Shown: one piece after another, positions 1,722 to 47,550 of the stretch
Position numbering within the stretch: position 1 is the stretch's first letter
Layout: each line of letters starts with the position of its first letter
Virus record (IMG/VR): IMGVR_UViG_2534681704_000008
DNA from: a virus
Lineage: Duplodnaviria > Heunggongvirae > Uroviricota > Caudoviricetes
Direction: 5' to 3' (one strand)
Length of the DNA: 47,550 nucleotides
Notes under the pieces: model-generated
Told to the model about the DNA's origin: nothing
The model's input: the letters and a program-made list of their open reading frames with translations, nothing else
The model's database searches: none
Position numbers and translations under genes: made by a program

Positions 1722-2084
1722 ATGTTAAAGTTATTCGCCAAGTACACATCAATAGGCATCATCAACACGCTCATCCATTGGGTTGTGTTCGCCATATGCA
1801 TCTACGCATTCCATACTGGTCAGGCGCTTGGCAATTTTGCCGGTTTTGTTGTCGCTGTATCATTCAGCTTCTTCGCAAATGCCAGATTCACCTTTAAGTC
1901 ATCAACCACGACCCTGCGTTACATGTTGTATGTCGGATTTATGGGCACGCTAAGCGCTGCGATTGGCTGGATTGCTGATAAGTCAGGCATGGCGCCTGTA
2001 GTCACGTTAATCGTGTTCTCCGCAATCAGTCTGGTTTGCGGTTTCATTTATTCAAAATTCATTGTCTTTAGGGATGCGAAATGA
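1722..2084 (+). CDS. gtrA: GtrA bactoprenol-glucose flippase
   Basis: 120 aa, [23 protein letters not shown], four predicted TM helices; overlaps gtrB start. Confidence 0.85.
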
Positions 2085-2998
2085 AAATTTCTCTGGTCGT
2101 TCCTGTCTTCAACGAAGAAGACGCGATACCTATTTTTTATAAAACTGTTCGGGAATTTGAAGGACTTCAGCAACATGAAGTTGAGATAGTCTTCATAAAT
2201 GACGGAAGCAAAGACGCGACAGAATCAATCATAAACACGCTGGCTATTGCCGATCCGCTTATTGTTCCTCTGTCTTTCACGCGCAACTTTGGCAAGGAAT
2301 CAGCACTCTTTGCCGGCCTTGACCATGCAACTGGTGAAGCGGTTATCCCTATTGACGTTGACTTGCAAGATCCCATAGAAGTCATCCCGCACCTGATTGA
2401 GAAGTGGCAGCAGGGTTCGGATATGGTTCTGGCTAAGCGCTCTGACCGCTCAACTGATAGCCGACTGAAGCGTAAGTCAGCTGAGTGGTTTTATAAGCTT
2501 CACAACAAAATAAGCAACCCGAAAATTGAAGAGAACGTAGGCGATTTCCGGCTTATGTCTCGCGAAGTTGTTGAAAACATCAAGCTCATGCCAGAACGTA
2601 ATCTATTCATGAAAGGTATCTTGAGCTGGGTTGGCGGCAGAGCAGACGTTGTTGAATACGCTCGCGCAGAACGCGTTGCGGGAAATACAAAATTCAACGG
2701 GTGGAAACTGTGGAACCTTGCCCTTGAGGGTATAACTAGCTTCTCAACATTCCCTCTGCGCGTATGGACGTACATAGGGCTTATCGTTGCTGGCATAGCG
2801 TTTATCTACGGCGCATGGATGATCATCGATACGCTGGCATTTGGTAATGCTGTGCGCGGATATCCATCTCTACTTGTCTCCATCCTGTTCCTTGGGGGAG
2901 TGCAACTTATTGGGATTGGCGTTCTTGGTGAATATATTGGAAGAATATATATCGAGTCTAAAAAGCGACCTAAATACATTCTAAGGAAGATGAAATGA
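2081..2998 (+). CDS. gtrB: GtrB bactoprenol glucosyltransferase (GT2)
   Basis: 305 aa; N-terminal GT2 signature ([11 protein letters not shown]...DGSKD...DVDLQDP) and C-terminal TM helices. Confidence 0.9.
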
Positions 2999-4557
2999 GT
3001 TCGCGTGTTGGATTAATATCAATCTTTATTGTGTTTTTATTGGTGTTAATAATTCAATTGTTAACACCATTTCACTCTGATGATTTCGGTTTTTATCTGA
3101 AAGGGTACTCATTCGAGACCCTGCATCATGTTTACATGACGTGGAGCGGAAGGCTGTTCTCCGATTTTACTGGAAGCCTTGTAATGTCCATCAAGGACAA
3201 AACAATAATTTCATTTATAAATGCATGTGCTTTTACATCGTTAATTGTCGTTTTAACAAAGCTACCGCTTGAAAACAAAAACAACTGGCCTGTTTTTATT
3301 CTGTTGTTCATGCTTTATTGGATCGACAACCCAAGTTTGAGCCAGACAAGCTTCTGGGTAGTAGGCTCTGCTAACTATCTATGGACTAATCTCTTAGCCT
3401 ATTCATGGTTATATCTTTACTTCAGGTATGGTTCAACTTCAGATGTAAAAATGAAAGCTTTGTTATTGCTAATGGCTTTCATAACAGGCATGACAACAGA
3501 GAATCTAAGCACTTCAATATTCGGTGTTTTGTTCCTCTACAATGCCTTAAATTTCTATATAGAACGAAAAATAAACTGGTTATCTGTTTCTCAAATGCTG
3601 TTGCTGCTTGCAGGTGTTGGGGTATTACTACTTGCTCCAGGTAACTTTGTGAGGTCATCATCTTGTTGTTTTGATTTTTATTCCCAGCCTCTGATTACAA
3701 GGATAACAAATCATTTCCCCGGTAAGTTCATATCAGAAATGATGGAGTACAAGCATGTTATTGTTCTAACTGTCATTTCAATTGGTTATGGGCTATATAA
3801 AAAGAAAGATATGACGTTACCATTACTTTTTGTAATTGGTGCAATAGCTTCAAACGCCATGCTGTTCGCCTCACCAACAAATACAGGTAGAGTGTTAAAC
3901 ACGGGGTTGGTAATGATGTTGGCATCTCTTTCCTTTGCTTTGAGTTCAATATCTGAATTCAAGGCAAGTAAATTTCTAATTTATGTTGCATCTATTTTAT
4001 CTTTGGTTCTTTTTGCTCAGTCGTATGCTAACAATTACCAAAGCATAAAGAGTGTGTTTGCTCAGGATCAGATCAGAACGCAGATGATAAAAGACGGGTA
4101 TGATGCCATTCCATACTTTTATCAAGGAAGCATAGAGAAAGAATCAGATAAGCTTGACATATTTTTTAATTCAAGCGCTATTTCTAAATTTTATGGAGCA
4201 ACAAAGGATGTTGGCTTAATCGATCTTCCTTTTGATTATTCTTTGATGACGCAACAAAAGACAAATATTAATGATAGCTATTTCATTAACTTCAGGAAGC
4301 TTGACGACGTATTCCTTTTTGAAGTATCAAACCCTGATGTTAAATTTGAAAACTATATTTTGTTTTTCAGATTAACAATGGATGATGGTAGCGTTGAGAA
4401 TCATGATTTCATACCTGTTCTACGTAATTATAAAGGACATTTGTATTTGAACTCATGGAAAGTTGATACAAAAGGTAAAGAAATAAAGTTATTCGAGATT
4501 GGATTCTACGATCCGGCACTTAAGAAAAATGTAAGGTCTGTCAGCGTCCCTATGTAA
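2995..4557 (+). CDS. gtrC: GtrC-type serotype-specific O-antigen glucosyltransferase (polytopic membrane protein)
   Basis: 520 aa, many TM segments, low GC, immediately downstream of and overlapping gtrAB. Confidence 0.65.
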
Positions 4558-4607: not shown

Positions 4608-6551
4608 TTATGCACCTTTAATCATAATCCACTTCCCGCCAGATGAATCTGAAACAGTAAATACTGCTGAAGATAGAGCTGGTAAAGGGTAAGGGGTGTT
4701 TATCCCTAAACCTAATATTTGTTGACCTAACGTAGGATAAATGTTTATAGAATTAGCGGAAACATTTGCTATCTGTACACTATAACCAGTGCCAACATCA
4801 GTAGTCGATGGTAGTTTCGCTCCAGTTCCAGGGCCACTAGCATTAACAGTAACACACCCTGCTGTTACACCATATCCTGCCGCGCCAGATTGACCGCCTC
4901 CAGTTCCAGTGATTGATGCTACAGGTAAATTGCTTGCCTTAACTACTTTGCGAACAACCTGTGAATAACCACCTGAAATGGTGATGTCAATATCATCAGT
5001 ACTATGAGGAGTTCCATCAAATGCGGTTGGGGTGGTAGCGACTGAGTATCCTCTAACCCTGACGCTGTTATAACCTGCGCTATCTCCAAAATAAACTGCA
5101 TTCTGATCTTGTCCATTTGCGATAACATCTATTACCGCCCCTGAGACTCCACCAAACCCTCCACCAAATGTAATTCCTGTGGACAATGGAAGCCCAATAC
5201 CCTTGTACTCTTCACCGATGTAACATGAGATTCGTGGATTTGAACCCAGCAAAACTATATTAGAGCCAGCCCACGGATAATAAACCTTGCAAGACTCACT
5301 CAAAGTAAAGTTGTTTGCCTCTACGAATACGTTTGTATCAGCACCTTCGAAATGTGAGGTATTAAATTCATTCCCTTCGGCTGGCCTGCTTACTTTTAGC
5401 GCATATTTAGATCGTAAGTCGCTCGCACTGGTCCAGCAGTGTATTCCTGACCATCGTGCATTTCCTTTCTCTATCCAGAGACCTGAGTAAGTACTCGCAG
5501 TCTTCTGCCCTGAGCTGATGATAATAACATCATTAACCACACTATCGTGCGGCCCTGCAAATCTCCAGCCATCCTCCCCACTTTTATCGATAACAATTTT
5601 ACTGAATGAGCCTTCCATGCCACCATCAGCATTGCCTGAATCAGCCCATTCTGTTCTTAATCCGTTCTTGCCTGCGTTGATGATATTGACCTTATCGATT
5701 CTGGTTCTTGGACCATAAATAGCTATAGCAGAACCATTCGGGCTATTTGCTTTATCTGCATCAATGGAGAGGTTTTCAACAATAATTCCATCTTCACCAA
5801 GTAAAGAGTTAGTACCCCAGAGAGAATTTGAGTTAGCGCCATAGAGTAATGCGTTCACTGAACCAGCTAACAGCTTGAGTTTAGTTCTCTCCTGCCCCTG
5901 TCCTCTGATTGTTGTTTTTGAATAAAGCGTAAGCGGGCCGGTTAATGTTGTGCCAGCAGGAACTATGCACGGTTTTCCCGTTAATTTATTTTCTTCTATT
6001 GCTGCCTGAAAGTTAACAGTATCTACTGTTACACCATCACATATACAGCCCCAGCCGCGAATATCTCCCTCATCTCTCCAGCGCGCAATCTGAAGCTCAG
6101 GGTATTTTACCGCACCATCAGGATCTGATATTTGTCTACGAAGAACATCACTGACATCAACAGGCTGCCATTTCCCATCACCAGTCCCGCCAGCAGAAGA
6201 TGGGGTAGAACCTGGCGGGACACTTTTTGGTAATGTCTCCAGGTCATCCCATCGGTACCAAATATCCGTACTCTCATCCTGGAGAAGGTCTCCAGCTGAC
6301 GTCACAGTGCCGCCATCCTGGAAAGATCCCCTCAGGTTCCATCCAAGGTTGTATATCTGCTGAAGCACTAACTGCTTCAGGCCTTCAATTGTATAGTGTG
6401 CTTTGCCAAAGCGATCAATGTATTGCTGAGAAATTGTGGTGACAAACTCGTCAATTTTCGCACCACCGAATACATGATCGCGAATATCAGGGCTTGGTAC
6501 AGGGTTTTGCGTCGGAGTTGGTACCGGGATGTTTGCGTATGAATCGGCCAT
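4608..6551 (-). CDS. Tailspike / side tail fiber with beta-helix (pectate-lyase-like) domain
   Basis: 647 aa; Gly/Ser/Thr/Asn-rich beta-helix-type composition; last gene of the tail module, next to gtr. Confidence 0.65.
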   Translation of the reverse strand: MADSYANIPVPTPTQNPVPSPDIRDHVFGGAKIDEFVTTISQQYIDRFGKAHYTIEGLKQLVLQQIYNLGWNLRGSFQDGGTVTSAGDLLQDESTDIWYRWDDLETLPKSVPPGSTPSSAGGTGDGKWQPVDVSDVLRRQISDPDGAVKYPELQIARWRDEGDIRGWGCICDGVTVDTVNFQAAIEENKLTGKPCIVPAGTTLTGPLTLYSKTTIRGQGQERTKLKLLAGSVNALLYGANSNSLWGTNSLLGEDGIIVENLSIDADKANSPNGSAIAIYGPRTRIDKVNIINAGKNGLRTEWADSGNADGGMEGSFSKIVIDKSGEDGWRFAGPHDSVVNDVIIISSGQKTASTYSGLWIEKGNARWSGIHCWTSASDLRSKYALKVSRPAEGNEFNTSHFEGADTNVFVEANNFTLSESCKVYYPWAGSNIVLLGSNPRISCYIGEEYKGIGLPLSTGITFGGGFGGVSGAVIDVIANGQDQNAVYFGDSAGYNSVRVRGYSVATTPTAFDGTPHSTDDIDITISGGYSQVVRKVVKASNLPVASITGTGGGQSGAAGYGVTAGCVTVNASGPGTGAKLPSTTDVGTGYSVQIANVSANSINIYPTLGQQILGLGINTPYPLPALSSAVFTVSDSSGGKWIMIKGA

Positions 6552-28128: not shown

Positions 28129-28485
28129 CTAATTATCTGGATTCCAGATGGTTTCATCCAACTCAAAAACTAGACACTTTTTAGATTTATCCAGATAAAA
28201 TTCTGCAGTTCTTGCTTCTTGATCTAAATAATCCCTATCTTTACAACCTTCGAAATACTGAACATCAACCTCAAACTCAAAAGAGCCAGCATTATCGCCT
28301 TTTTCATACCAGACTTCGGTCACCTCAAAGCTGTCTGATTGATAGCTATATCGTGGATCGCCACGATAATCAGCCATGACATAACCTTCAAAATAATGTG
28401 AATGCTGCTTTATAAGATCCCGAAATGCTGCTTCTGTATTTGAAAAATCATCAGGAATATAGATCTCATATCTTTTGGTGCCCAT
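28129..28485 (-). CDS. Hypothetical acidic protein; cargo gene between Q and the lysis cassette
   Basis: 118 aa from MGTKRYEIYIPDDF (ATG 28485; the longer ORF-track start at 28536 is GTG); AT-rich; flanked by terminators. Confidence 0.5.
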   Translation of the reverse strand: MGTKRYEIYIPDDFSNTEAAFRDLIKQHSHYFEGYVMADYRGDPRYSYQSDSFEVTEVWYEKGDNAGSFEFEVDVQYFEGCKDRDYLDQEARTAEFYLDKSKKCLVFELDETIWNPDN

Positions 28486-28509
28486 TGGGAAAACCTTAGA
28501 GTTTGATAT

Positions 28510-28555
28510 TAGAGCAAATATTAAAACAAAAGCCACCGACTTTAACCAGTGGCTT
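28510..28555 (-). terminator. Intrinsic terminator directly downstream of Q
   Basis: aagccac-N12-gtggctt hairpin followed on the minus strand by ttgttttaatattt. Confidence 0.5.
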
Positions 28556-28622: not shown

Positions 28623-29312
28623 TTAATTGACTTTTGCAATACCCTGCTGCGAAAAAGTCGCCTTTTGTTGCGATCGTGTTCTCACAGCGCAGAGAAGAGA
28701 GTCGCTATCAAGCCGCTTAAAGATGGTGCACATGGCCCGCCAGTAATCGGCGTAGTTATGGCACCAGTTATCAGGTTTAACGCCGCACAGGGCCGCCAGG
28801 TCCTGATGCTGATATACATCCTTGCCTGCCAGCTCCGCTTTGACGTCCTGCGCCGCCAGCCAGATAAGTTTCTTCAGGCGCTCCATCGTCTTGCCGGCCA
28901 CCTTCTTCGTGCCGAGTTGCTCACGGAACTCTGCCCATGCCCACTGAGTTATCGCCACCTGATACTCGAAGCGGATGTTCTCGCTGTAGTTCCACAACAG
29001 CCATGCTTTCTGGTGGTCTTCAAGCGACAGGACGGCGCGGCGCCACGATGCGGTCACGAACTCAACCGGGCCCACCAGCGCAATGGATGAACCCTTGGCG
29101 CGTGACTGGCTGCCGCTCATCGGCGGGCCGTCCGGGTTGACCATGCGCTGCTTATCCTTGTCGAATACCTTTTTCCGGCCCCGACTGCGCGCCGTCGCGG
29201 TGAATTGCGCATTCTCGGCGAAGGCTACCAACTGCCCTTTCGTCGACCCGCTCAGATCTGCGGTCGCCACAATGAGCTGCTGACGTACGTATTCCAGTTG
29301 CTGACTGTTCAT
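28623..29312 (-). CDS. Late antitermination protein Q (assigned by position and size)
   Basis: 229 aa, located between rusA and the late/lysis region, Cys-containing C-terminus. Confidence 0.55.
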   Translation of the reverse strand: MNSQQLEYVRQQLIVATADLSGSTKGQLVAFAENAQFTATARSRGRKKVFDKDKQRMVNPDGPPMSGSQSRAKGSSIALVGPVEFVTASWRRAVLSLEDHQKAWLLWNYSENIRFEYQVAITQWAWAEFREQLGTKKVAGKTMERLKKLIWLAAQDVKAELAGKDVYQHQDLAALCGVKPDNWCHNYADYWRAMCTIFKRLDSDSLLCAVRTRSQQKATFSQQGIAKVN

Positions 29313-30068: not shown

Positions 30069-30231
30069 GCGCCCTCCGTGCCGCGAGGCGCAGCCATTTC
30101 TGATCCACCAGGCGGGCGGTGTAGTCTTTCATGGTCGGGATGTCGGACGGCTTAACCGCGGGCTTGCGCTGGCGGCGCGCCGGAACGCGGAAGATTTCGT
30201 TTGTGATGACGCGTGCGAGAGGGTTATTCAT
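30061..30231 (-). CDS. Small nin-region protein absent from the ORF track
   Basis: 56 aa (MNNPLARVITNEIFRVPARRQRKPAVKPSD...); ATGA overlap with ninB stop and overlap with the next start. Confidence 0.45.
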   Translation of the reverse strand: MNNPLARVITNEIFRVPARRQRKPAVKPSDIPTMKDYTARLVDQKWLRLAARRAHG

Positions 30232-30665
30232 GCAAGCCTCCCGAAATAATCGCCACGATAACGTACATCGCGAAGCTGGACGTTCTGACTGACGGCGAAA
30301 GCCTGGGTGTACTCAATCAGGCTGTTCATCCGTTTGATCCCCATCGATGAGGTGCTTTCGCGAATTGCCACCAATTCGCCCTCAAGCCCGGCGATAACCT
30401 TCCCCTGCCCGCCAGTGGCAATGGAGTGACCGGAAACCAGAATTGACTTCCATGACGGAAGCGACCACGCAGATCCAGCCCACTGAATGCGATGCTTTGC
30501 CAGGTCGCCGCAAAGCGCGTGGAATAGTGAATTCTGAGGCAGGGTGCGCTTAGGGTCGGCAAAACTCACTACGAGCGGGAAATCTGCGTTTACAGGCTGT
30601 TTGTTGATGTAGTCAATGAGGTTGCGGCGAACCTGCTCGTCACGGAGGTAAAATTTAATACTCAT
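30228..30665 (-). CDS. ninB: NinB recombination protein
   Basis: 145 aa from MSIKFYLRDEQ (ATG 30665, GGAGGTG RBS); FPLVVSFADPKRTLPQNSLFHALCGD resembles lambda NinB. Confidence 0.75.
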   Translation of the reverse strand: MSIKFYLRDEQVRRNLIDYINKQPVNADFPLVVSFADPKRTLPQNSLFHALCGDLAKHRIQWAGSAWSLPSWKSILVSGHSIATGGQGKVIAGLEGELVAIRESTSSMGIKRMNSLIEYTQAFAVSQNVQLRDVRYRGDYFGRLA

Positions 30666-30871
30666 ACGCCACCTCCGAGAGGTAACGCAGAATGCAGAAA
30701 ATCGCAGGTGCATTTCTGCATCTGTGACAATGTTAGGAGTTCAGATTGTGGTCGCATTTAAGTCCCCTTAAATGCGCAGAAGTCACCGGAGTTGTTCAGG
30801 CTCCGATGACATGATTATGGCGGGTTGATTTCAGAAAATCAAAGTAGTTTTTGTTATGCGTTACTTATGCC

Positions 30872-31273
30872 TTATTTCAATTCGTAGATGAGGCAATCAA
30901 CGATTTCAAGACCGTTCACCATAGAGTTAGTTAAACGAATCGTGCTATTGCTGATCCTAGAAAATCCTTTAAGCATCTTATATAGATAATCATTATCGCC
31001 TTTAGCTTCGATTGTATCCAAAGGGATTGGCTTGTACTTTTTCGAAACGCTATTTCTGTTTATGTCACTGATTTTCTTATAAACATATGCTGGCCCTCGT
31101 TCTTGAATTTCTTTTATTACCAACATATATCGCCATGATAGATCTGGATAATAGAACCACAATGCGGCATCAACAGTTAAATTCTCTGCTTTCAATTTTT
31201 TTAACAAAAATTGTCCGGAGAACTCCATGTCTTTAGTCAACTCCCTGCCGACTACCAGTGTGTTTTTAACCAT
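30872..31273 (-). CDS. Hypothetical protein, partner of the HEPN-like gene
   Basis: 133 aa, Lys-rich, very low GC; 22-nt overlap with the upstream gene. Confidence 0.5.
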   Translation of the reverse strand: MVKNTLVVGRELTKDMEFSGQFLLKKLKAENLTVDAALWFYYPDLSWRYMLVIKEIQERGPAYVYKKISDINRNSVSKKYKPIPLDTIEAKGDNDYLYKMLKGFSRISNSTIRLTNSMVNGLEIVDCLIYELK

Positions 31274-31668
31274 TTCAAAACTCCAGATTGTTGGTCACCT
31301 ACAGCATCAATAAGTTGTTCTGACAATGCTCTAGTTATGTTGGTATCGTAACGAAACTGCTCACTCCAGTCTTTCACGACAGTCCAGTTTATTTCTAACG
31401 ATGCATCATTTCTTGAGTCGGCAATCAACATTTGATGTAAGTTAGCGATCTTCAGAAGTTTCGATAAATCATGAGTGTAGGAATCGTTCACTGTGGTCTT
31501 GTTAGGGAATTCATGTTGCAAAAATGTCTTTGCAATACAAGCCTTGAGCGCACATTCCACAGCATAACCACAAAGATAATAGGCACCATGGTATAACCCA
31601 TTAGCAAATAAACATTTAGCTTCGTCAAATCTAATGGTAGACAAGGATTCAAGATCATTCTTAGTCAT
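31252..31668 (-). CDS. HEPN-like domain protein (candidate toxin/abortive-infection effector)
   Basis: 138 aa; N-terminal helix FDEAKCLFANGLYHGAYYLCGYAVECALKACIAK is HEPN-like; low GC; no canonical Rx4-6H seen. Confidence 0.5.
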   Translation of the reverse strand: MTKNDLESLSTIRFDEAKCLFANGLYHGAYYLCGYAVECALKACIAKTFLQHEFPNKTTVNDSYTHDLSKLLKIANLHQMLIADSRNDASLEINWTVVKDWSEQFRYDTNITRALSEQLIDAVGDQQSGVLKWLKTHW

Positions 31669-31739
31669 ATAATTCTAGCTGGAATTATGTTCATTTCTCA
31701 GGATTATACCCCTTTTAGGCATTGAGTTGTAAGTTGATT

Positions 31740-31910
31740 TTGTTTTCTATCAAGCATCTAGTTCAGCTATCCGCCTTTCTTTGGCTTCCAGCTCATCCAG
31801 CAGCGCCAGCACATCGCGAGTGTGAGCCTCAAGCACGGGATTAAGTTGTCTTTCGCTCTCTCAGCCGCTTCTCTTAATGCGCGTTTAGCGAGTTTGTCGA
31901 TGCTGCTCAT
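31740..31910 (-). pseudogene. Small early gene with an apparent -1 frameshift
   Basis: N-terminal frame MSSIDKLAKRALREAAERAKDNLIP; C-terminal frame VLEAHTRDVLALLDELEAKERRIAELDA; shift at a C/G run near 31837. Confidence 0.4.
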
Positions 31911-32104
31911 TGGGCGGCCTCCTGCATGGCTGGGTCTGCTGGTAAAGTCATGTGCGGCACTTCAATCAGTTCTGCCCGAGCATCAGCCGTGTTCAGCGCC
32001 ATTAATGCGACGATCCGCTTCTGCTCAGCATCCATTCGTAAAGCTACTGTCTTGCCGTTCATATTGAAGAACACCGCAACGTTTTTGATATCTTCGATTT
32101 TCAT
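31907..32104 (-). CDS. Small hypothetical protein
   Basis: 65 aa from MKIEDIKNV (GGGGGAGGG RBS); ATGA-type overlaps with neighbours. Confidence 0.5.
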   Translation of the reverse strand: MKIEDIKNVAVFFNMNGKTVALRMDAEQKRIVALMALNTADARAELIEVPHMTLPADPAMQEAAQ

Positions 32105-32445
32105 ACCCCTACCCTCCCCCAAACCATCAATACTCGCTTCATAGCCGGACTATTCCGGCACTCCTGGCAGATAACGTTTGTGTCTGTCCGCTGAATTAAC
32201 TTCGACTTGCCCTGCTTAATGCCCGGTATCGTGTCAGGGGCGAAGCGCATGCCGTAACTGGTCAGGCTATACAGGCGCTGACCATATTTGCCTTCGCAGC
32301 TGATCAGCCCATCGGCCAGCAGCGTGCTCACCGTCCCGGATATTTTTTTGGTGTCCATACCGATAAGTCCTGCCAGCTTAGCGTTGTTCAGCCCTGGGTT
32401 ATTACGCAGGGCGGCCAGCACCTGCTCACGGATTGTTATGGTCAT
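32101..32445 (-). CDS. Small winged-helix-like protein downstream of P
   Basis: 114 aa from MTITIREQVLAALRNNPGLNNAKLAGLIGMD. Confidence 0.5.
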   Translation of the reverse strand: MTITIREQVLAALRNNPGLNNAKLAGLIGMDTKKISGTVSTLLADGLISCEGKYGQRLYSLTSYGMRFAPDTIPGIKQGKSKLIQRTDTNVICQECRNSPAMKRVLMVWGRVGV

Positions 32446-32446
32446 G

Positions 32447-33136
32447 TCACACCATCCCGTTCGACTTGTTTCGGTTGTACTTCGCCAGCAGCAGCTGGAT
32501 CGGCGTCGGACCGTGCTCGGCAGCCGGTGCTGCAATTGCCCGGCGTACCGGCGGCACAGGCTTACCCTCGGTGACGCGCTTCTCCCACATGTCCAGCAAA
32601 TCGCCTGCCTCGCGTGCCAGCTCACCATGCGTTAACTGGCGCTCAGTGCTGCGGTGGCGCAATTCTACGCAAATGTGGTACATGACCGGCTGCGACCATG
32701 GAAATTGCTCGCTGGAGGTGAATTCGAACGAACGGTTACGCCAGTCCCAGTATTCGGCGATCACCTGGTCAACGTTGATTCCTAGCGCCCCGCCACTCTG
32801 TTTGCACCAGGCGACGAACTGGCCCGGCGACGGCAGGAATGGGCGCTCCTGGCGGCGGGCAATGCGCATACCGGCATCGACTTGCGCCATTGAGTGGATC
32901 CCGTTCTCCTGAAACGCCAGCAGCCACTGACGGCGGAATTCGTTCAGGTCGTCCTGGGTGCGGAAGTTCGCCATGCTGGCCGGGAACGCGGCACGCAGTT
33001 CGTTGAACAGCTTGTTGAATACCTGCGCCACCTGCTCTACTGGCGCCCGCTCCTGGTACTGATCTGGCAGGTTATGGGCCATGCGGCTCATCTGCTCGCG
33101 GTCATGGTTACGCATCTGCTCTGCAAGAGATTTCAT
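32447..33136 (-). CDS. P: Replication protein P (helicase loader)
   Basis: 229 aa; RPFLPSPGQFVAWC and FDREQMSRMAHNLPDQY closely resemble lambda P. Confidence 0.85.
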   Translation of the reverse strand: MKSLAEQMRNHDREQMSRMAHNLPDQYQERAPVEQVAQVFNKLFNELRAAFPASMANFRTQDDLNEFRRQWLLAFQENGIHSMAQVDAGMRIARRQERPFLPSPGQFVAWCKQSGGALGINVDQVIAEYWDWRNRSFEFTSSEQFPWSQPVMYHICVELRHRSTERQLTHGELAREAGDLLDMWEKRVTEGKPVPPVRRAIAAPAAEHGPTPIQLLLAKYNRNKSNGMV

Positions 33137-34098
33137 CGGATCACCCCATAGGCCCAGTCAGTGTTGTTGAAGTCCAGTTCCTGCTTGACGGCGCGCTGCT
33201 CACCACCAGCGCTGCGCTGCATCGTCAGCTTGTCCCACTGCTTACGCAGGCTTTCCGGGCTCAGGATGTTGGTCTGCCAGAAGTGGTGTTTGCTGGCCCA
33301 GTCATACAGCGCGCAGATATCCTGGTGCGACCGGTTATCTATCTGTCGCATCAGGCGAACGGTGTTAGACCAGGAGGTCATGTCCGGGGCTTTGCAGGTT
33401 GGGTTAATCAGCTTCACCCTTGTGGAAATCCACTGGGCGGTTTTTAGGTCTTCAGCCGATCCCCACTTCGCACCGGATGGTGTGTAGATCGCAGCTTCAG
33501 GATGAGCTGATAAAAATTTCTTCAGGCGTGCGTCTGAGGATTCGCCAGAATTCTCGGACGAAGATCTTTTAATGTTTTTATTGTTGTTATTACATTGTTG
33601 TTCATGATTCTCGGTGAAACGCTCGGATAAATGCGCGCAGTTATGCGCGGCATCACCTTCCGAAGCCGCACCATCACTGGCTTCGCCATGCTCGGCATTA
33701 AGCGCGGAGATATGCGCGGTGAAACGCTCGGGTGGATTGTCCATTTTTTGAGCATATTCAGCGTAATTTGTGATGGTTATCACAGAGCCTTTTCGCTTCT
33801 CTCCGGAGCGGGAAATCATTCCTTCACGCTCGAAAACATCAAGCATCCTGTCGACGGCGTGGCGACTGCATGGCTTCCCTTCCCTGTCGCATAAATTCAG
33901 CCCGAGATCGGCTGAGGTGGTGACCAGTTGTCCGGTTTGCAGCGGCCATTGGCGCCCCTTGAAGTTTGCCGTGTATGGCTGGCGGGCAGCACACAGCAGC
34001 AGGTTTTCCCACAGCGTGCGCAGGAAGACGTCCTTCGACCAGGTTTGCTTAAGAACACTCCGGTACAACGGGATGAATCCGGTTTTCTGGTTCTCCAT
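33133..34098 (-). CDS. O: Replication initiator O
   Basis: 321 aa from MENQKTGFIPLYR (ATG 34098, AGGAGC RBS; the ORF-track start at 34155 is GTG); contains ori repeats and an Asn-rich AT-rich linker. Confidence 0.75.
   Translation of the reverse strand: MENQKTGFIPLYRSVLKQTWSKDVFLRTLWENLLLCAARQPYTANFKGRQWPLQTGQLVTTSADLGLNLCDREGKPCSRHAVDRMLDVFEREGMISRSGEKRKGSVITITNYAEYAQKMDNPPERFTAHISALNAEHGEASDGAASEGDAAHNCAHLSERFTENHEQQCNNNNKNIKRSSSENSGESSDARLKKFLSAHPEAAIYTPSGAKWGSAEDLKTAQWISTRVKLINPTCKAPDMTSWSNTVRLMRQIDNRSHQDICALYDWASKHHFWQTNILSPESLRKQWDKLTMQRSAGGEQRAVKQELDFNNTDWAYGVIR
33550..33740. repeat. Putative replication origin inside O (iteron-like repeats plus AT-rich tract)
   Basis: GGTGAAACGCTCGG at 33612-33625 and 33717-33730; (A/T)ATGCGCGG three times; adjacent AT-rich tract 33551-33600. 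Confidence 0.55.
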
Positions 34099-34283
34099 CC
34101 GGTTGCTCCTGGCGGCTGAGTGCGCCGCGAAATTAGCGTAAGCGACGTTCGACACAGTTAAACCTCCTGCGCCTGGCGTTTTGGATTAGCGTTTGTCATA
34201 ATGACCTCGCAATTGACTGACGTTTGTTGCACCAGAAAGTCGGTTCTGTTCGCGCAGACCGGCTTTCGCCATTTCTGTATTTC

Positions 34284-34778
34284 TCACATAACCCCCAGCA
34301 TTGATGTAACCATCGTCATCAGTGGCCCTACCTGCTCCGGCATGAGGCGGAACAGCGAAGCTATACCCTCGCTTACCTCTTTCAGCTTCTGATGCTCTGG
34401 AGCGTCCAGCAGCACAGCCTGTTTAGCCTCTGCGAGTTCTTTCTCGGCTTCAGCCAGGCGAGACATTTTGCAATCGGCACCGATCAGGCGAGTGCGATAC
34501 TCAACCGGCAGCACGGCCATGATTGCTGGCGTCAGCTGGCGCACGTTCTCGCGGTACTGCTCGGAGTCGAAACGGTTGTCCAGAAAGCGGAACAGCTTCT
34601 GGCGGGCCCGGCTGATGTCTTCCGGGAAGCTGATAGCGGTCCCGCCCTGCTCCCGGTATTCGTTGATGATCAGCGCCGAAACGACGTCCTGATTGTCCAG
34701 CGCCGACGACCATGCCCGGACCGCATCGCGGATCTTTTCGTGGTCCGGCGCCGCCTTAGGTTGAGCGCGGTTTATCAT
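34284..34778 (-). CDS. YdaT-like protein
   Basis: 164 aa from MINRAQPK; EYREQGG and LTPAIMAVLPVEYRTRL resemble E. coli Rac YdaT. Confidence 0.6.
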   Translation of the reverse strand: MINRAQPKAAPDHEKIRDAVRAWSSALDNQDVVSALIINEYREQGGTAISFPEDISRARQKLFRFLDNRFDSEQYRENVRQLTPAIMAVLPVEYRTRLIGADCKMSRLAEAEKELAEAKQAVLLDAPEHQKLKEVSEGIASLFRLMPEQVGPLMTMVTSMLGVM

Positions 34779-34843
34779 CGCTCCCGGGTGTATTCCGGTA
34801 TTGTGTTGATACGCAAGTGAATGCATTGCTTTCCCTTTCGTGG

Positions 34844-46254: not shown

Positions 46255-47550
46255 ATGGCTAAGTCAGCATACCCAACAGGCGTGGAGAATCATGGCGGTA
46301 CGCTCCGCATATGGTTCATCTATAAAGGCAGCCGGGTGCGTGAAAGCCTCGGCGTGCCGGATACACCAAAAAATAGAAAAGTAGCTGGCGAGTTACGCGC
46401 GTCGGTGTGCTTCGCGATAAAGACAGGCAACTTCAACTATGCCGCACAGTTCCCTGACTCGCCGAACCTGAGAAGATTTGGGGTGGAGAGCAAGGAAATC
46501 ACCGTGCTCGAACTGGCGAACAAGTGGCTTGAACTGAAGCGTATGGAGATCAGCACCAACGCGATGTCACGTTATACATCTATAACGCGCAATATGGTAC
46601 CGCGGATCGGCGGAGACAGGCTGGTATCTGCGGTGACGCAGGAAGACCTGCTGTTTATCAGAAAGGAACTGCTGACCGGGTATCAGACGCTGAAGGCTGG
46701 ACACAAAACACCAGTTAAAGGCCGCACAGTCAGAACGGTCAACAACTACATGAAGACCATGGCTGGCATGTTCAAGTTCGCTGCTGAAAGTGGTTATGTG
46801 AAGGTGAGCCCTTTCACCGGGATCGCCCTTCTCAAGCGTTCGCGTTGCGAGCCTGATCCGCTCACCCGCGATGAGTTTGTCAGGCTGATTAACGCTTGCG
46901 CCACCCAGCAGTTGAAAAACATGTGGTCGCTGGCAGTGTACACCGGCGTGCGCCACGGTGAACTGGTGTCGCTGGCCTGGGAAGATATCGACCTGAAAGC
47001 AGGAACGATGATGATCCGCCGAAACCACACGTTGACGAAGGAGTTTACCCTTCCGAAAACCGAGGCTGGGACAAACCGCATCATCAACCTTATTCAGCCA
47101 GCTATTGACGTGCTGAAGAACCAGGCCGAATTAACCCGCCTGGGTAAGCAGTATCAGGTAGAGGTGAAACTGCGTGAGTTTGGTCGCACAGAAGTGCATC
47201 CGTGCACATTCGTGTTTAACCCACAAAAAGGATTGCGCAATGGCCGTGCAGGGCATCATTACGCAGTGGGGTCGATCAACCAGTCGTGGGAGGCAGCAAT
47301 GCGACGCGCCGGGATTCGCTATCGCAGAGCATACCAGTCCCGACACACGTATGCATGCTGGTCGTTGGCCGCCGGTGCTAACCCGAACTTCATCGCGAAG
47401 CAAATGGGCCACACCGACGCACAAATGGTTTACCGGGTGTACGGATCCTGGATGGCTGAAAATAACCAGGACCAGGTACTCATCCTCAACCAGAAATTGA
47501 GTGAGTTTGCCCCATCCATGCCCCACGCAGTGGGAACGGATGATTATTAA
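46255..47550 (+). CDS. int: Tyrosine integrase (lambda Int family)
   Basis: 431 aa, AGGAGGG RBS; catalytic region RHTYACWSLAAGANPNFIAKQMGHTDAQMVYRVY; the 3' end contains the att core. Confidence 0.9.
   Translation: MAKSAYPTGVENHGGTLRIWFIYKGSRVRESLGVPDTPKNRKVAGELRASVCFAIKTGNFNYAAQFPDSPNLRRFGVESKEITVLELANKWLELKRMEISTNAMSRYTSITRNMVPRIGGDRLVSAVTQEDLLFIRKELLTGYQTLKAGHKTPVKGRTVRTVNNYMKTMAGMFKFAAESGYVKVSPFTGIALLKRSRCEPDPLTRDEFVRLINACATQQLKNMWSLAVYTGVRHGELVSLAWEDIDLKAGTMMIRRNHTLTKEFTLPKTEAGTNRIINLIQPAIDVLKNQAELTRLGKQYQVEVKLREFGRTEVHPCTFVFNPQKGLRNGRAGHHYAVGSINQSWEAAMRRAGIRYRRAYQSRHTYACWSLAAGANPNFIAKQMGHTDAQMVYRVYGSWMAENNQDQVLILNQKLSEFAPSMPHAVGTDDY
47488..47528. repeat. attR core: 41-bp direct repeat identical to 984-1024, inside the int 3' end
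   Basis: Exact identity with 984-1024. Confidence 0.7.

Follow-up and report, generated by a model that had tools for sequence, protein, structure and literature searches.

Few toxin and defence components of prokaryotes are as abundant as HEPN modules. The current work concerns a cassette of two overlapping genes, here named A and B, which specify a HEPN-domain protein and a small basic partner and which are located in the virus record IMGVR_UViG_2534681704_000008 (Caudoviricetes), the whole analysed stretch of 47,550 nucleotides (nt) of this record being referred to as the window. The cassette represents a compact and strictly conserved two-gene version of a PF05168 branch that is biochemically uncharacterised (PMC7641770). 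What the present analysis adds is a large and uncurated partner family, tied to this HEPN subfamily across phyla and in at least one archaeal metagenome-assembled genome (MAG) with a fixed gene overlap of 22 nt, the partner being without the domain and the motif of a minimal nucleotidyltransferase (MNT) and the HEPN protein being without the canonical RNase motif.

The nearest family to the A-B pair is the class II HEPN/MNT group (Makarova/Koonin; Yao et al. 2020, PMC7641770), in which a PF05168 protein is paired with a PF01909 protein, and which has been described as retaining a conserved Tyr, as lacking RX4H and as having no biochemistry available for the class. Its HEPN member is, like A, a small stand-alone PF05168 protein with the conserved Tyr and no RX4HXY, and its modules are, like A-B, composed of two genes, sporadically distributed, mobile and biochemically uncharacterised. 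Its MNT partner, however, is usually encoded upstream, whereas B contains neither a PF01909 domain nor GSX10DXD and is encoded downstream with the fixed 22-nt overlap. The HepT/MntA type VII toxin-antitoxin (TA) system (class I; SO_3166/SO_3165, PDB 5YEP) differs from A-B in that A is without RX4HXY and B without a nucleotidyltransferase motif, in that the gene order is opposite, and in that A belongs to PF05168 whereas HepT belongs to PF01934.

Among HEPN proteins encoded by prophages, HepS of the Salmonella prophage Gifsy-1 (PMC13043305) is, like A, a small HEPN protein carried as lambdoid accessory cargo after the replication genes; the lysogen expresses HepS, and its mode of action is abortive infection. 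HepS acts alone, without a conserved partner and with a canonical R100-H105, whereas A has an obligate partner and a non-canonical motif, the two proteins having been compared by genomic setting, partner and motif. The closest functional analogue of A-B is Tha/Ith of Staphylococcus aureus prophages (PMC11087260), in which a HEPN effector encoded by a prophage is likewise paired with its own small inhibitor protein, yet Tha is a protein of ~300 amino acids (aa) with canonical R265/H270, ith is antisense with its own promoter, and no homology to A-B is evident. Finally, A is related to a single gene, the HEPN-like one, of the PADLOC candidate system PDC-M28 (Payne et al., bioRxiv 10.1101/2024.01.29.577857), and the corresponding protein is found embedded in BREX, DISARM or type I restriction-modification loci. 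Unlike A-B, PDC-M28 is a three-gene cassette (FAM_01482>>FAM_02546>>FAM_01036) of untested activity, and B fits none of its models, on which grounds membership of the cassette in this system was rejected. The DefensePredictor HEPN system DS-28 was also discarded as a candidate, its gene sizes being different from those of A and B, and a non-exhaustive search of the DefensePredictor supplements with peptides of A and B gave no match. No earlier description of the A-B dyad was found in the literature, the coverage of which was incomplete, so that a prior description is possible.

The cassette in the window is composed of the following features:

31252-31668, minus strand: gene A, 138 aa, HEPN-domain protein (PF05168 type), putative effector or toxin
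30872-31273, minus strand: gene B, 133 aa, basic alpha/beta protein of an uncurated family, putative cognate neutraliser or regulator of A
31252-31273, minus strand: A/B overlap of 22 nt, probable translational coupling site, as read from the sequence
31284-31281, minus strand: GGAG Shine-Dalgarno sequence for B, within gene A and 7 nt upstream of the B ATG
31703-31732, minus strand: promoter-like element with a -35 TTACAA (31732-31727), an 18-nt spacer and a -10 TATAAT (31708-31703), 34 nt upstream of the A ATG
30846-31766, minus strand: low-GC cargo segment (promoter, A and B), GC 0.365

Both open reading frames (ORFs) put forward in the original prediction, with their lengths of 138 and 133 aa, are real, and their strand, which that prediction had not given, is the minus strand. 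The ATG of B is located 22 nt ahead of the end of gene A. The base composition is also as had been claimed, the GC of 0.365 in the cargo segment comparing with 0.565 for the interval from Q to ninB, 0.560 for the interval from orf47 to O and 0.520 for the whole window, while in a window-wide scan a GC of 0.38 or lower was reached in 3.7% of the 800-nt windows. On the side of B the cargo extends to 27 nt past the stop codon, where sequence common to other lambdoid phages starts, and on the side of A it adjoins orf47. Neither flanking direct repeats nor a transposon-like insertion signature was found at the cassette, no terminator was found 3' of gene B, and an RNA component was ruled out, the sole match of an Rfam scan being a sub-threshold snoRNA, taken as chance.

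The association between the two genes is complete in the sample analysed, A being directly followed by B in 116/116 loci, which represent many phyla of bacteria and, with one MAG, the archaea, in agreement with the operon originally proposed. This association was recovered from either gene: each of the 80 genome loci found through A alone carries B immediately downstream on the same strand, and each of the 29 viral loci found through B alone (29 IMG/VR contigs) carries A immediately upstream. The genome sample consists of 80 loci from at least 584 species genomes matched by the A alignment, and these loci belong to Gammaproteobacteria, Acidobacteriota, Chloroflexota, Desulfobacterota, Planctomycetota, Verrucomicrobiota, Chlorobi, Bacteroidota, Gemmatimonadota and, in one case, an Aenigmatarchaeota MAG. 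The overlap measures exactly 22 nt in 104 of the 111 A-B loci. The two proteins have evolved together at different rates, with a mean pairwise identity of 0.33 for B versus 0.50 for A (B being the lower in 97% of pairs) and with distance matrices that correlate at r 0.56 among distant pairs, a value reached by 0/200 label permutations; a faster-evolving antitoxin that is inherited with its toxin is a typical pattern.

A census of the two immediate neighbours per locus in the 80 genomes (140 neighbours) returned 168 Pfam families, none of which occurs more than 3 times, and because the neighbours are this heterogeneous, a conserved third component is ruled out. Genes of TA or defence type are rare among them (PIN 3 times, AAA_21 3 times, PtuA-like twice), one locus being situated in a PIN/HicB/PIN island. 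The distribution is sporadic across phyla, and one Acidobacteriota MAG contains two A-B copies (L040/L041). A-B is a widespread chromosomal dyad, not a phage invention; it is often situated beside or within operons of housekeeping genes, and it rarely lies beside defence genes. The layout is that of a generic type II TA system, namely two small, adjacent and co-directional genes which are strictly co-inherited, sporadically distributed and present on mobile elements.

Individual chromosomal loci have peculiarities of their own. In a Chloroflexi MAG (L001 3001-3800) the pair is part of a purN-purM-A-B-purH operon in which B overlaps purH by 4 nt, and in three genomes of the Methylococcales lineage (L004, L037, L049) it is placed directly after secD-secF; a selfish TA module would not normally be embedded this tightly in core operons. 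In the MAG of the DPANN archaeon (Aenigmatarchaeota, L064 1000-1796) the A-B pair is of full length and the overlap is the same, which implies either an inter-domain transfer or a contamination of the bin.

Protein A is a HEPN-domain protein of the PF05168 ('class II') type, since residues 14-108 match the Pfam HEPN model PF05168 with 27.3 bits at a gathering cut-off of 22. It furthermore matches phrog_5737 (function unknown) over its full length and, weakly, PADLOC PDC-M28A (E 1.9e-8), a HEPN-like model of 138 positions that is matched by all 117 aligned relatives of A (best E 1.6e-11). More than 506 homologues of ~138 aa were found, being ~50% identical even across phyla; most of those listed have a precomputed PF05168 match, and public records name the relatives of A 'HEPN domain-containing protein'. 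The claim of a HEPN-like N-terminal helix was hence correct as to HEPN and incorrect as to the helix, the peptide quoted for it, GAYYLCGYAVECALKACIAK, corresponding to residues 28-47, which form the most conserved block of the A family. The candidate identity of A as AbiV (TIGR04498) was rejected, as the score of 13.9 bits (E 0.052) is below the NCBIfam threshold of 27, and sequence searches of PDB, run with A and with the profiles of A and of B, yielded no meaningful match.

In the 117-sequence alignment the residues R13, G28, Y31, G34, Y35, E38, C39, K42, F54, P55, H66, L71, W101, R106, Y107 and G129 are invariant, and the motif RX4HXY is absent both from A and from the consensus of its family. 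Members of PF05168 ('HEPN-T') have been described to often lose the His of the motif and to keep a conserved His elsewhere as a possible alternative active site, while inactive HEPN domains serve as binding or regulatory modules (Anantharaman et al., PMC3710099). The invariant H66, located N-terminal to R106, fits this 'alternative His' case, and on the basis of these residues catalytic activity of A is plausible.

Protein B is rich in Lys (11.3%, with an isoelectric point of 9.2) and, as originally noted, without a recognised domain, no match being obtained in Pfam, NCBIfam or PADLOC and phrog_5760 (function unknown) being the sole match in PHROGs. A search with the single B sequence retrieved 22 relatives, in Klebsiella, E. 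coli, Citrobacter and Acinetobacter; B homologues (28-32% identity, pairwise E 1e-15) are also encoded downstream of distant homologues of A, and a B profile search recovered at least 315 proteins. An exhaustive search of 1.84 billion cluster representatives (50% identity) with a B hidden Markov model retrieved 3,057 sequences at E<=1e-3 and 1,607 at E<=1e-10. Among the best 150 listed, almost all are stand-alone proteins of ~120-140 aa, and the four longest of these 150 include no A-B fusion. The partner is hence not a lone orphan, and belongs to a large family that is absent from Pfam, NCBIfam and PADLOC, with no Pfam or PADLOC family being matched consistently across 111 B members. Within this family R113 and D126 are invariant, N120 and Y130 are near-invariant, and position 44 is always D or E.

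An AlphaFold2 model of B was obtained from the 111-sequence alignment with a predicted local distance difference test score (pLDDT) of 93 and a predicted template modelling score (pTM) of 0.88, superseding an earlier and poor model (pLDDT 62.6) that was built from 17 close relatives. The predicted topology is alpha(14-29), beta-hairpin(34-41/47-53), alpha(55-74), beta(88-91), alpha(96-101), beta-hairpin(112-119/122-132), and a Foldseek search of the model against PDB and BFVD returned no significant match. As a claim of membership, the identification of B as an MNT was rejected: GSx8-12DxD is present in 0/111 B proteins, none of the 111 matches PF01909 at E<=1, and the predicted topology has a beta-hairpin where nucleotidyltransferases have strand-GS-helix-strand.

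The upstream region of the cassette was compared in an alignment of eight diverged cassette-bearing phage loci. The hexamer TATAAT is identical in seven of these, and a -35-like hexamer is present in seven, being TTACAA in the window and four others and a variant in two, with a spacer of 17-18 nt. The element was not listed by a scan for consensus promoters, because its -35 fits only 3/6 positions, and it is regarded as a conserved, putative promoter-like element that travels with the cassette. Homology among cassette-bearing phages starts only ~75 nt before the A ATG and includes this element; for this reason the cassette is considered to be horizontally acquired, mobile cargo (a moron) occupying a variable slot. 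Related prophages without the insert, a comparison that had been proposed along with the horizontal acquisition itself, carry unrelated genes in the slot, this being an N15 gp45-like gene in phi80, and a DNA methyltransferase, a promoter-bearing hypothetical gene and DinI in mEp237. The alleles of O/P and ninB also differ between cassette-bearing phages, O/P of the cassette-bearing contigs being ~46% identical to those of the window and a ninB homologue being recognisable in 4/29 viral contigs, with 28% identity. The features that define a lambdoid moron are therefore present together, namely atypical GC, a slot filled by unrelated genes in sister phages and a promoter-like element.

Of the TA or abortive-infection interpretation that had been attached to the pair, the TA-like architecture stands; the pair is not specific to phages and an MNT partner is absent, while toxicity and defence are what we infer. 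The reading favoured here, to which a rough probability of 0.55 is given, is that A and B constitute an autonomous HEPN effector and its cognate protein neutraliser, that is, a non-MNT and HEPN-first variant of the HEPN/MNT theme carried as a moron that the lysogen expresses. If it resembles other HEPN proteins, the effector A would be an RNase acting as a dimer, and its active site would be non-canonical, with the invariant R106/Y107 and H66 (together with E38/K42) taking the place of Rx4-6H. Considering that B starts 22 nt inside A, the two proteins are probably translationally coupled, and B would hold A inactive, most likely by direct binding, this being favoured over AMPylation because B is without the catalytic motif of a nucleotidyltransferase. 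Expression of the pair in the lysogen would be driven by its own promoter; if B were lost or titrated, or if a phage cue were received, A would be released and would arrest the cell, the expected outcome being prophage or host retention (addiction) and/or abortive infection directed against superinfecting phage.

Several observations weigh against a HEPN effector with a neutraliser. The putative toxin gene precedes that of its partner, an arrangement that is the rarer one among TA genes. The motif Rx4-6H is absent in A and its family, R106 being followed by YDTNIT and neither H nor D being conserved 4-6 residues after it. No DNA-binding domain (RHH, HTH, AbrB, Phd) was recognised in B or its 111 relatives, such a domain being usual in type II antitoxins for autoregulation and not a strict requirement of the class. 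About one quarter of the chromosomal copies follow housekeeping genes (purM/purH, secDF, release factor, EF-P) in the same orientation and at a distance of less than 60 nt, which suggests stable residence in core operons, and PADLOC matches (e.g. PtuA, AriA) concern only 2-3 of the 140 neighbours. Moreover, for the PF05168 class neither RNase activity nor toxicity has been demonstrated (PMC7641770).

Several of these points are accommodated by a non-toxic regulatory or housekeeping pair, in which A would be a non-catalytic nucleotide- or RNA-binding HEPN protein, a role suggested for HEPN domains of the sacsin type and for those fused to MNT, with B as its structural partner and the prophage copy as a passenger of modest effect. 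Apart from the missing Rx4-6H motif, such a pair would be consistent with the fact that class II HEPN proteins have yet to be validated as toxins (PMC7641770), with the described role of inactive HEPN domains as binding or regulatory modules (PMC3710099), and with the co-directional arrangement and the short or overlapping junctions of the dyad in purN-purM-[A-B]-purH (L001) and secD-secF-[A-B] (L004, L037, L049). It is nevertheless considered unlikely, since the polar residues R13, E38, K42, H66, R106 and Y107 are invariant across phyla in a manner resembling an active site, since an alternative catalytic His has explicitly been proposed for PF05168 members (PMC3710099), and since a sporadic, multi-copy and mobile module that recurs as low-GC phage cargo with its own promoter is not expected of housekeeping genes.

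The order of the genes, with A upstream and B downstream, would conversely be the classical antitoxin-first one if the roles were reversed, so that B would be the toxic effector and A its antitoxin or regulator; the conserved polar residues of B (R113, D126, N120, Y130 and the acidic position 44) and its basic character, which is shared by many nucleic-acid-binding toxins, could be read in the same way. Such a reversal appears improbable, given that B evolves much faster than A, as is usual for antitoxins, that B resembles no toxin fold, and that all HEPN systems characterised so far have the HEPN domain as their effector (PMC3710099, PMC7641770, PMC13043305, PMC11087260). If, instead, B were a cryptic enzymatic antitoxin of MNT type (type VII TA), it could for example AMPylate the invariant Tyr107, just as MntA AMPylates HepT. 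This is judged very improbable in view of the complete absence of GSx8-12DxD and of PF01909 matches from the 111 B proteins, the gene order opposite to that of MntA-HepT, the lack of any significant Foldseek result in PDB and BFVD, and the beta-hairpin that the model predicts at the nucleotidyltransferase strand-GS-helix-strand site.

If A is indeed toxic and is neutralised by B, as the effector-neutraliser reading holds, the dyad would represent a new type of HEPN defence or TA system, the alternative-histidine active site proposed in 2013 would have been put to the test, and a recurrent cargo of the replication-nin slot in lambdoid prophages would be explained. A more far-reaching proposal is advanced only tentatively, according to which A-B would be an undescribed and very widespread HEPN conflict family, where a HEPN enzyme with an alternative His/Arg/Tyr site is under the control of an orphan-fold B, whose ancestor may have been a minimal nucleotidyltransferase that became inactive, and where in lambdoid prophages the pair provides lysogen-expressed abortive infection, B serving as a switch that responds to phage; were this so, 'class II' PF05168 HEPN proteins would obtain their first functional handle. 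Should A not be toxic, the outcome would be informative on non-catalytic HEPN domains. The Klebsiella, E. coli, Enterobacter and Citrobacter prophages in which the cassette is present would provide native lysogens as test hosts.

The window consists of a whole phi80/HK639/HK225-like prophage, which includes gtrA, a family-2 glycosyltransferase gene, a DUF6056 gene, a tail spike gene and an integrase gene. All neighbours of the cassette, as identified with Pfam and PHROGs, are encoded on the minus strand:

33133-34155, minus strand: replication gene O
32447-33136, minus strand: replication gene P
32101-32445, minus strand: Ren-like winged helix-turn-helix protein after P (phrog_142, E 1e-28; Ren-like exclusion protein)
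between the Ren-like gene and the cassette, minus strand: two small ORFs
31907-32122, minus strand: one of these two, a 71-aa ORF following the Ren-like gene (phrog_12311, also in phage mEp237)
30720-30845, no strand assigned: conserved lambdoid intergenic segment upstream of ninB, slot boundary, outside the cassette
30753-30776: hairpin (inverted repeat) in the intergenic segment, equivalent of phi80 IR4 by the phi80 annotation
30228-30671, minus strand: NinB
between NinB and Q, minus strand: a 56-aa ORF, YbcO and RusA, in that order
28623-29312, minus strand: antiterminator Q

The order O, P, Ren-like gene, two ORFs, cassette, ninB, YbcO, RusA and Q corresponds to the left end of the nin region, where the cassette had been placed in the original prediction. 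The same surroundings were encountered in most of the 29 viral contigs, with O/P homologues recognisable upstream of the cassette in 19 and with orf56, YbcO or Q downstream in 26. The homology with mEp237 ends at about position 31892, from which it follows that the variable slot starts just past the 71-aa ORF.

When the interval 30720-31760 was used in megablast searches, its only part with matches was 30720-30845, which was found in 26 phage records and in 2,197 of 5,426 E. coli genomes; near-identical DNA of the cassette itself was present in neither the phage nor the E. coli genome collection. By tblastn, Klebsiella phage Kp4864-1, whose record carries no annotation, was the only phage with both genes, which are adjacent and overlapping. 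A distant A-B pair is present in IMG/VR contig 3300042995_000011 (L036 5621-6405), its A being 47% and its B 29% identical to those of the window; this contig has no lambdoid neighbour genes, which indicates that the A-B module also occurs in an unrelated type of phage.

Elsewhere in the window, the 180-aa protein encoded just upstream of O (34284-34826, minus strand), at the position of the cII-like activator in phi80-type phages, contains the Pfam domain YdaT_toxin (E 1e-29). A second low-GC island (28129-28536, minus strand; GC 0.36) is located between Q and the lysis genes and contains a 135-aa ORF (ATG at 28484) which matches phrog_13663 (function unknown), has no Pfam match and is followed by a strong terminator made of a GC stem and a T-run. 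The Q gene preceding this island has a tR'-like hairpin, hairpins being located at about 28548-28520 and 28113-28088. The position of the island is a classic late-operon moron site, which in other lambdoid phages is occupied by stx or bor. A third low-GC block (1722-4557, plus strand) encodes GtrA (PF04138), a GtrB-like family-2 glycosyltransferase and, in the position of GtrC, a 520-aa DUF6056 membrane protein; it resembles an O-antigen modification (lysogenic conversion) module and adjoins the tail-spike gene (4608-6551). The window starts with an SRAP (YedK-like) gene (1-669) and ends with a tyrosine integrase with an Arm DNA-binding domain (46255-47550), and because these two genes lie at its opposite ends, it spans essentially the whole integrated prophage.
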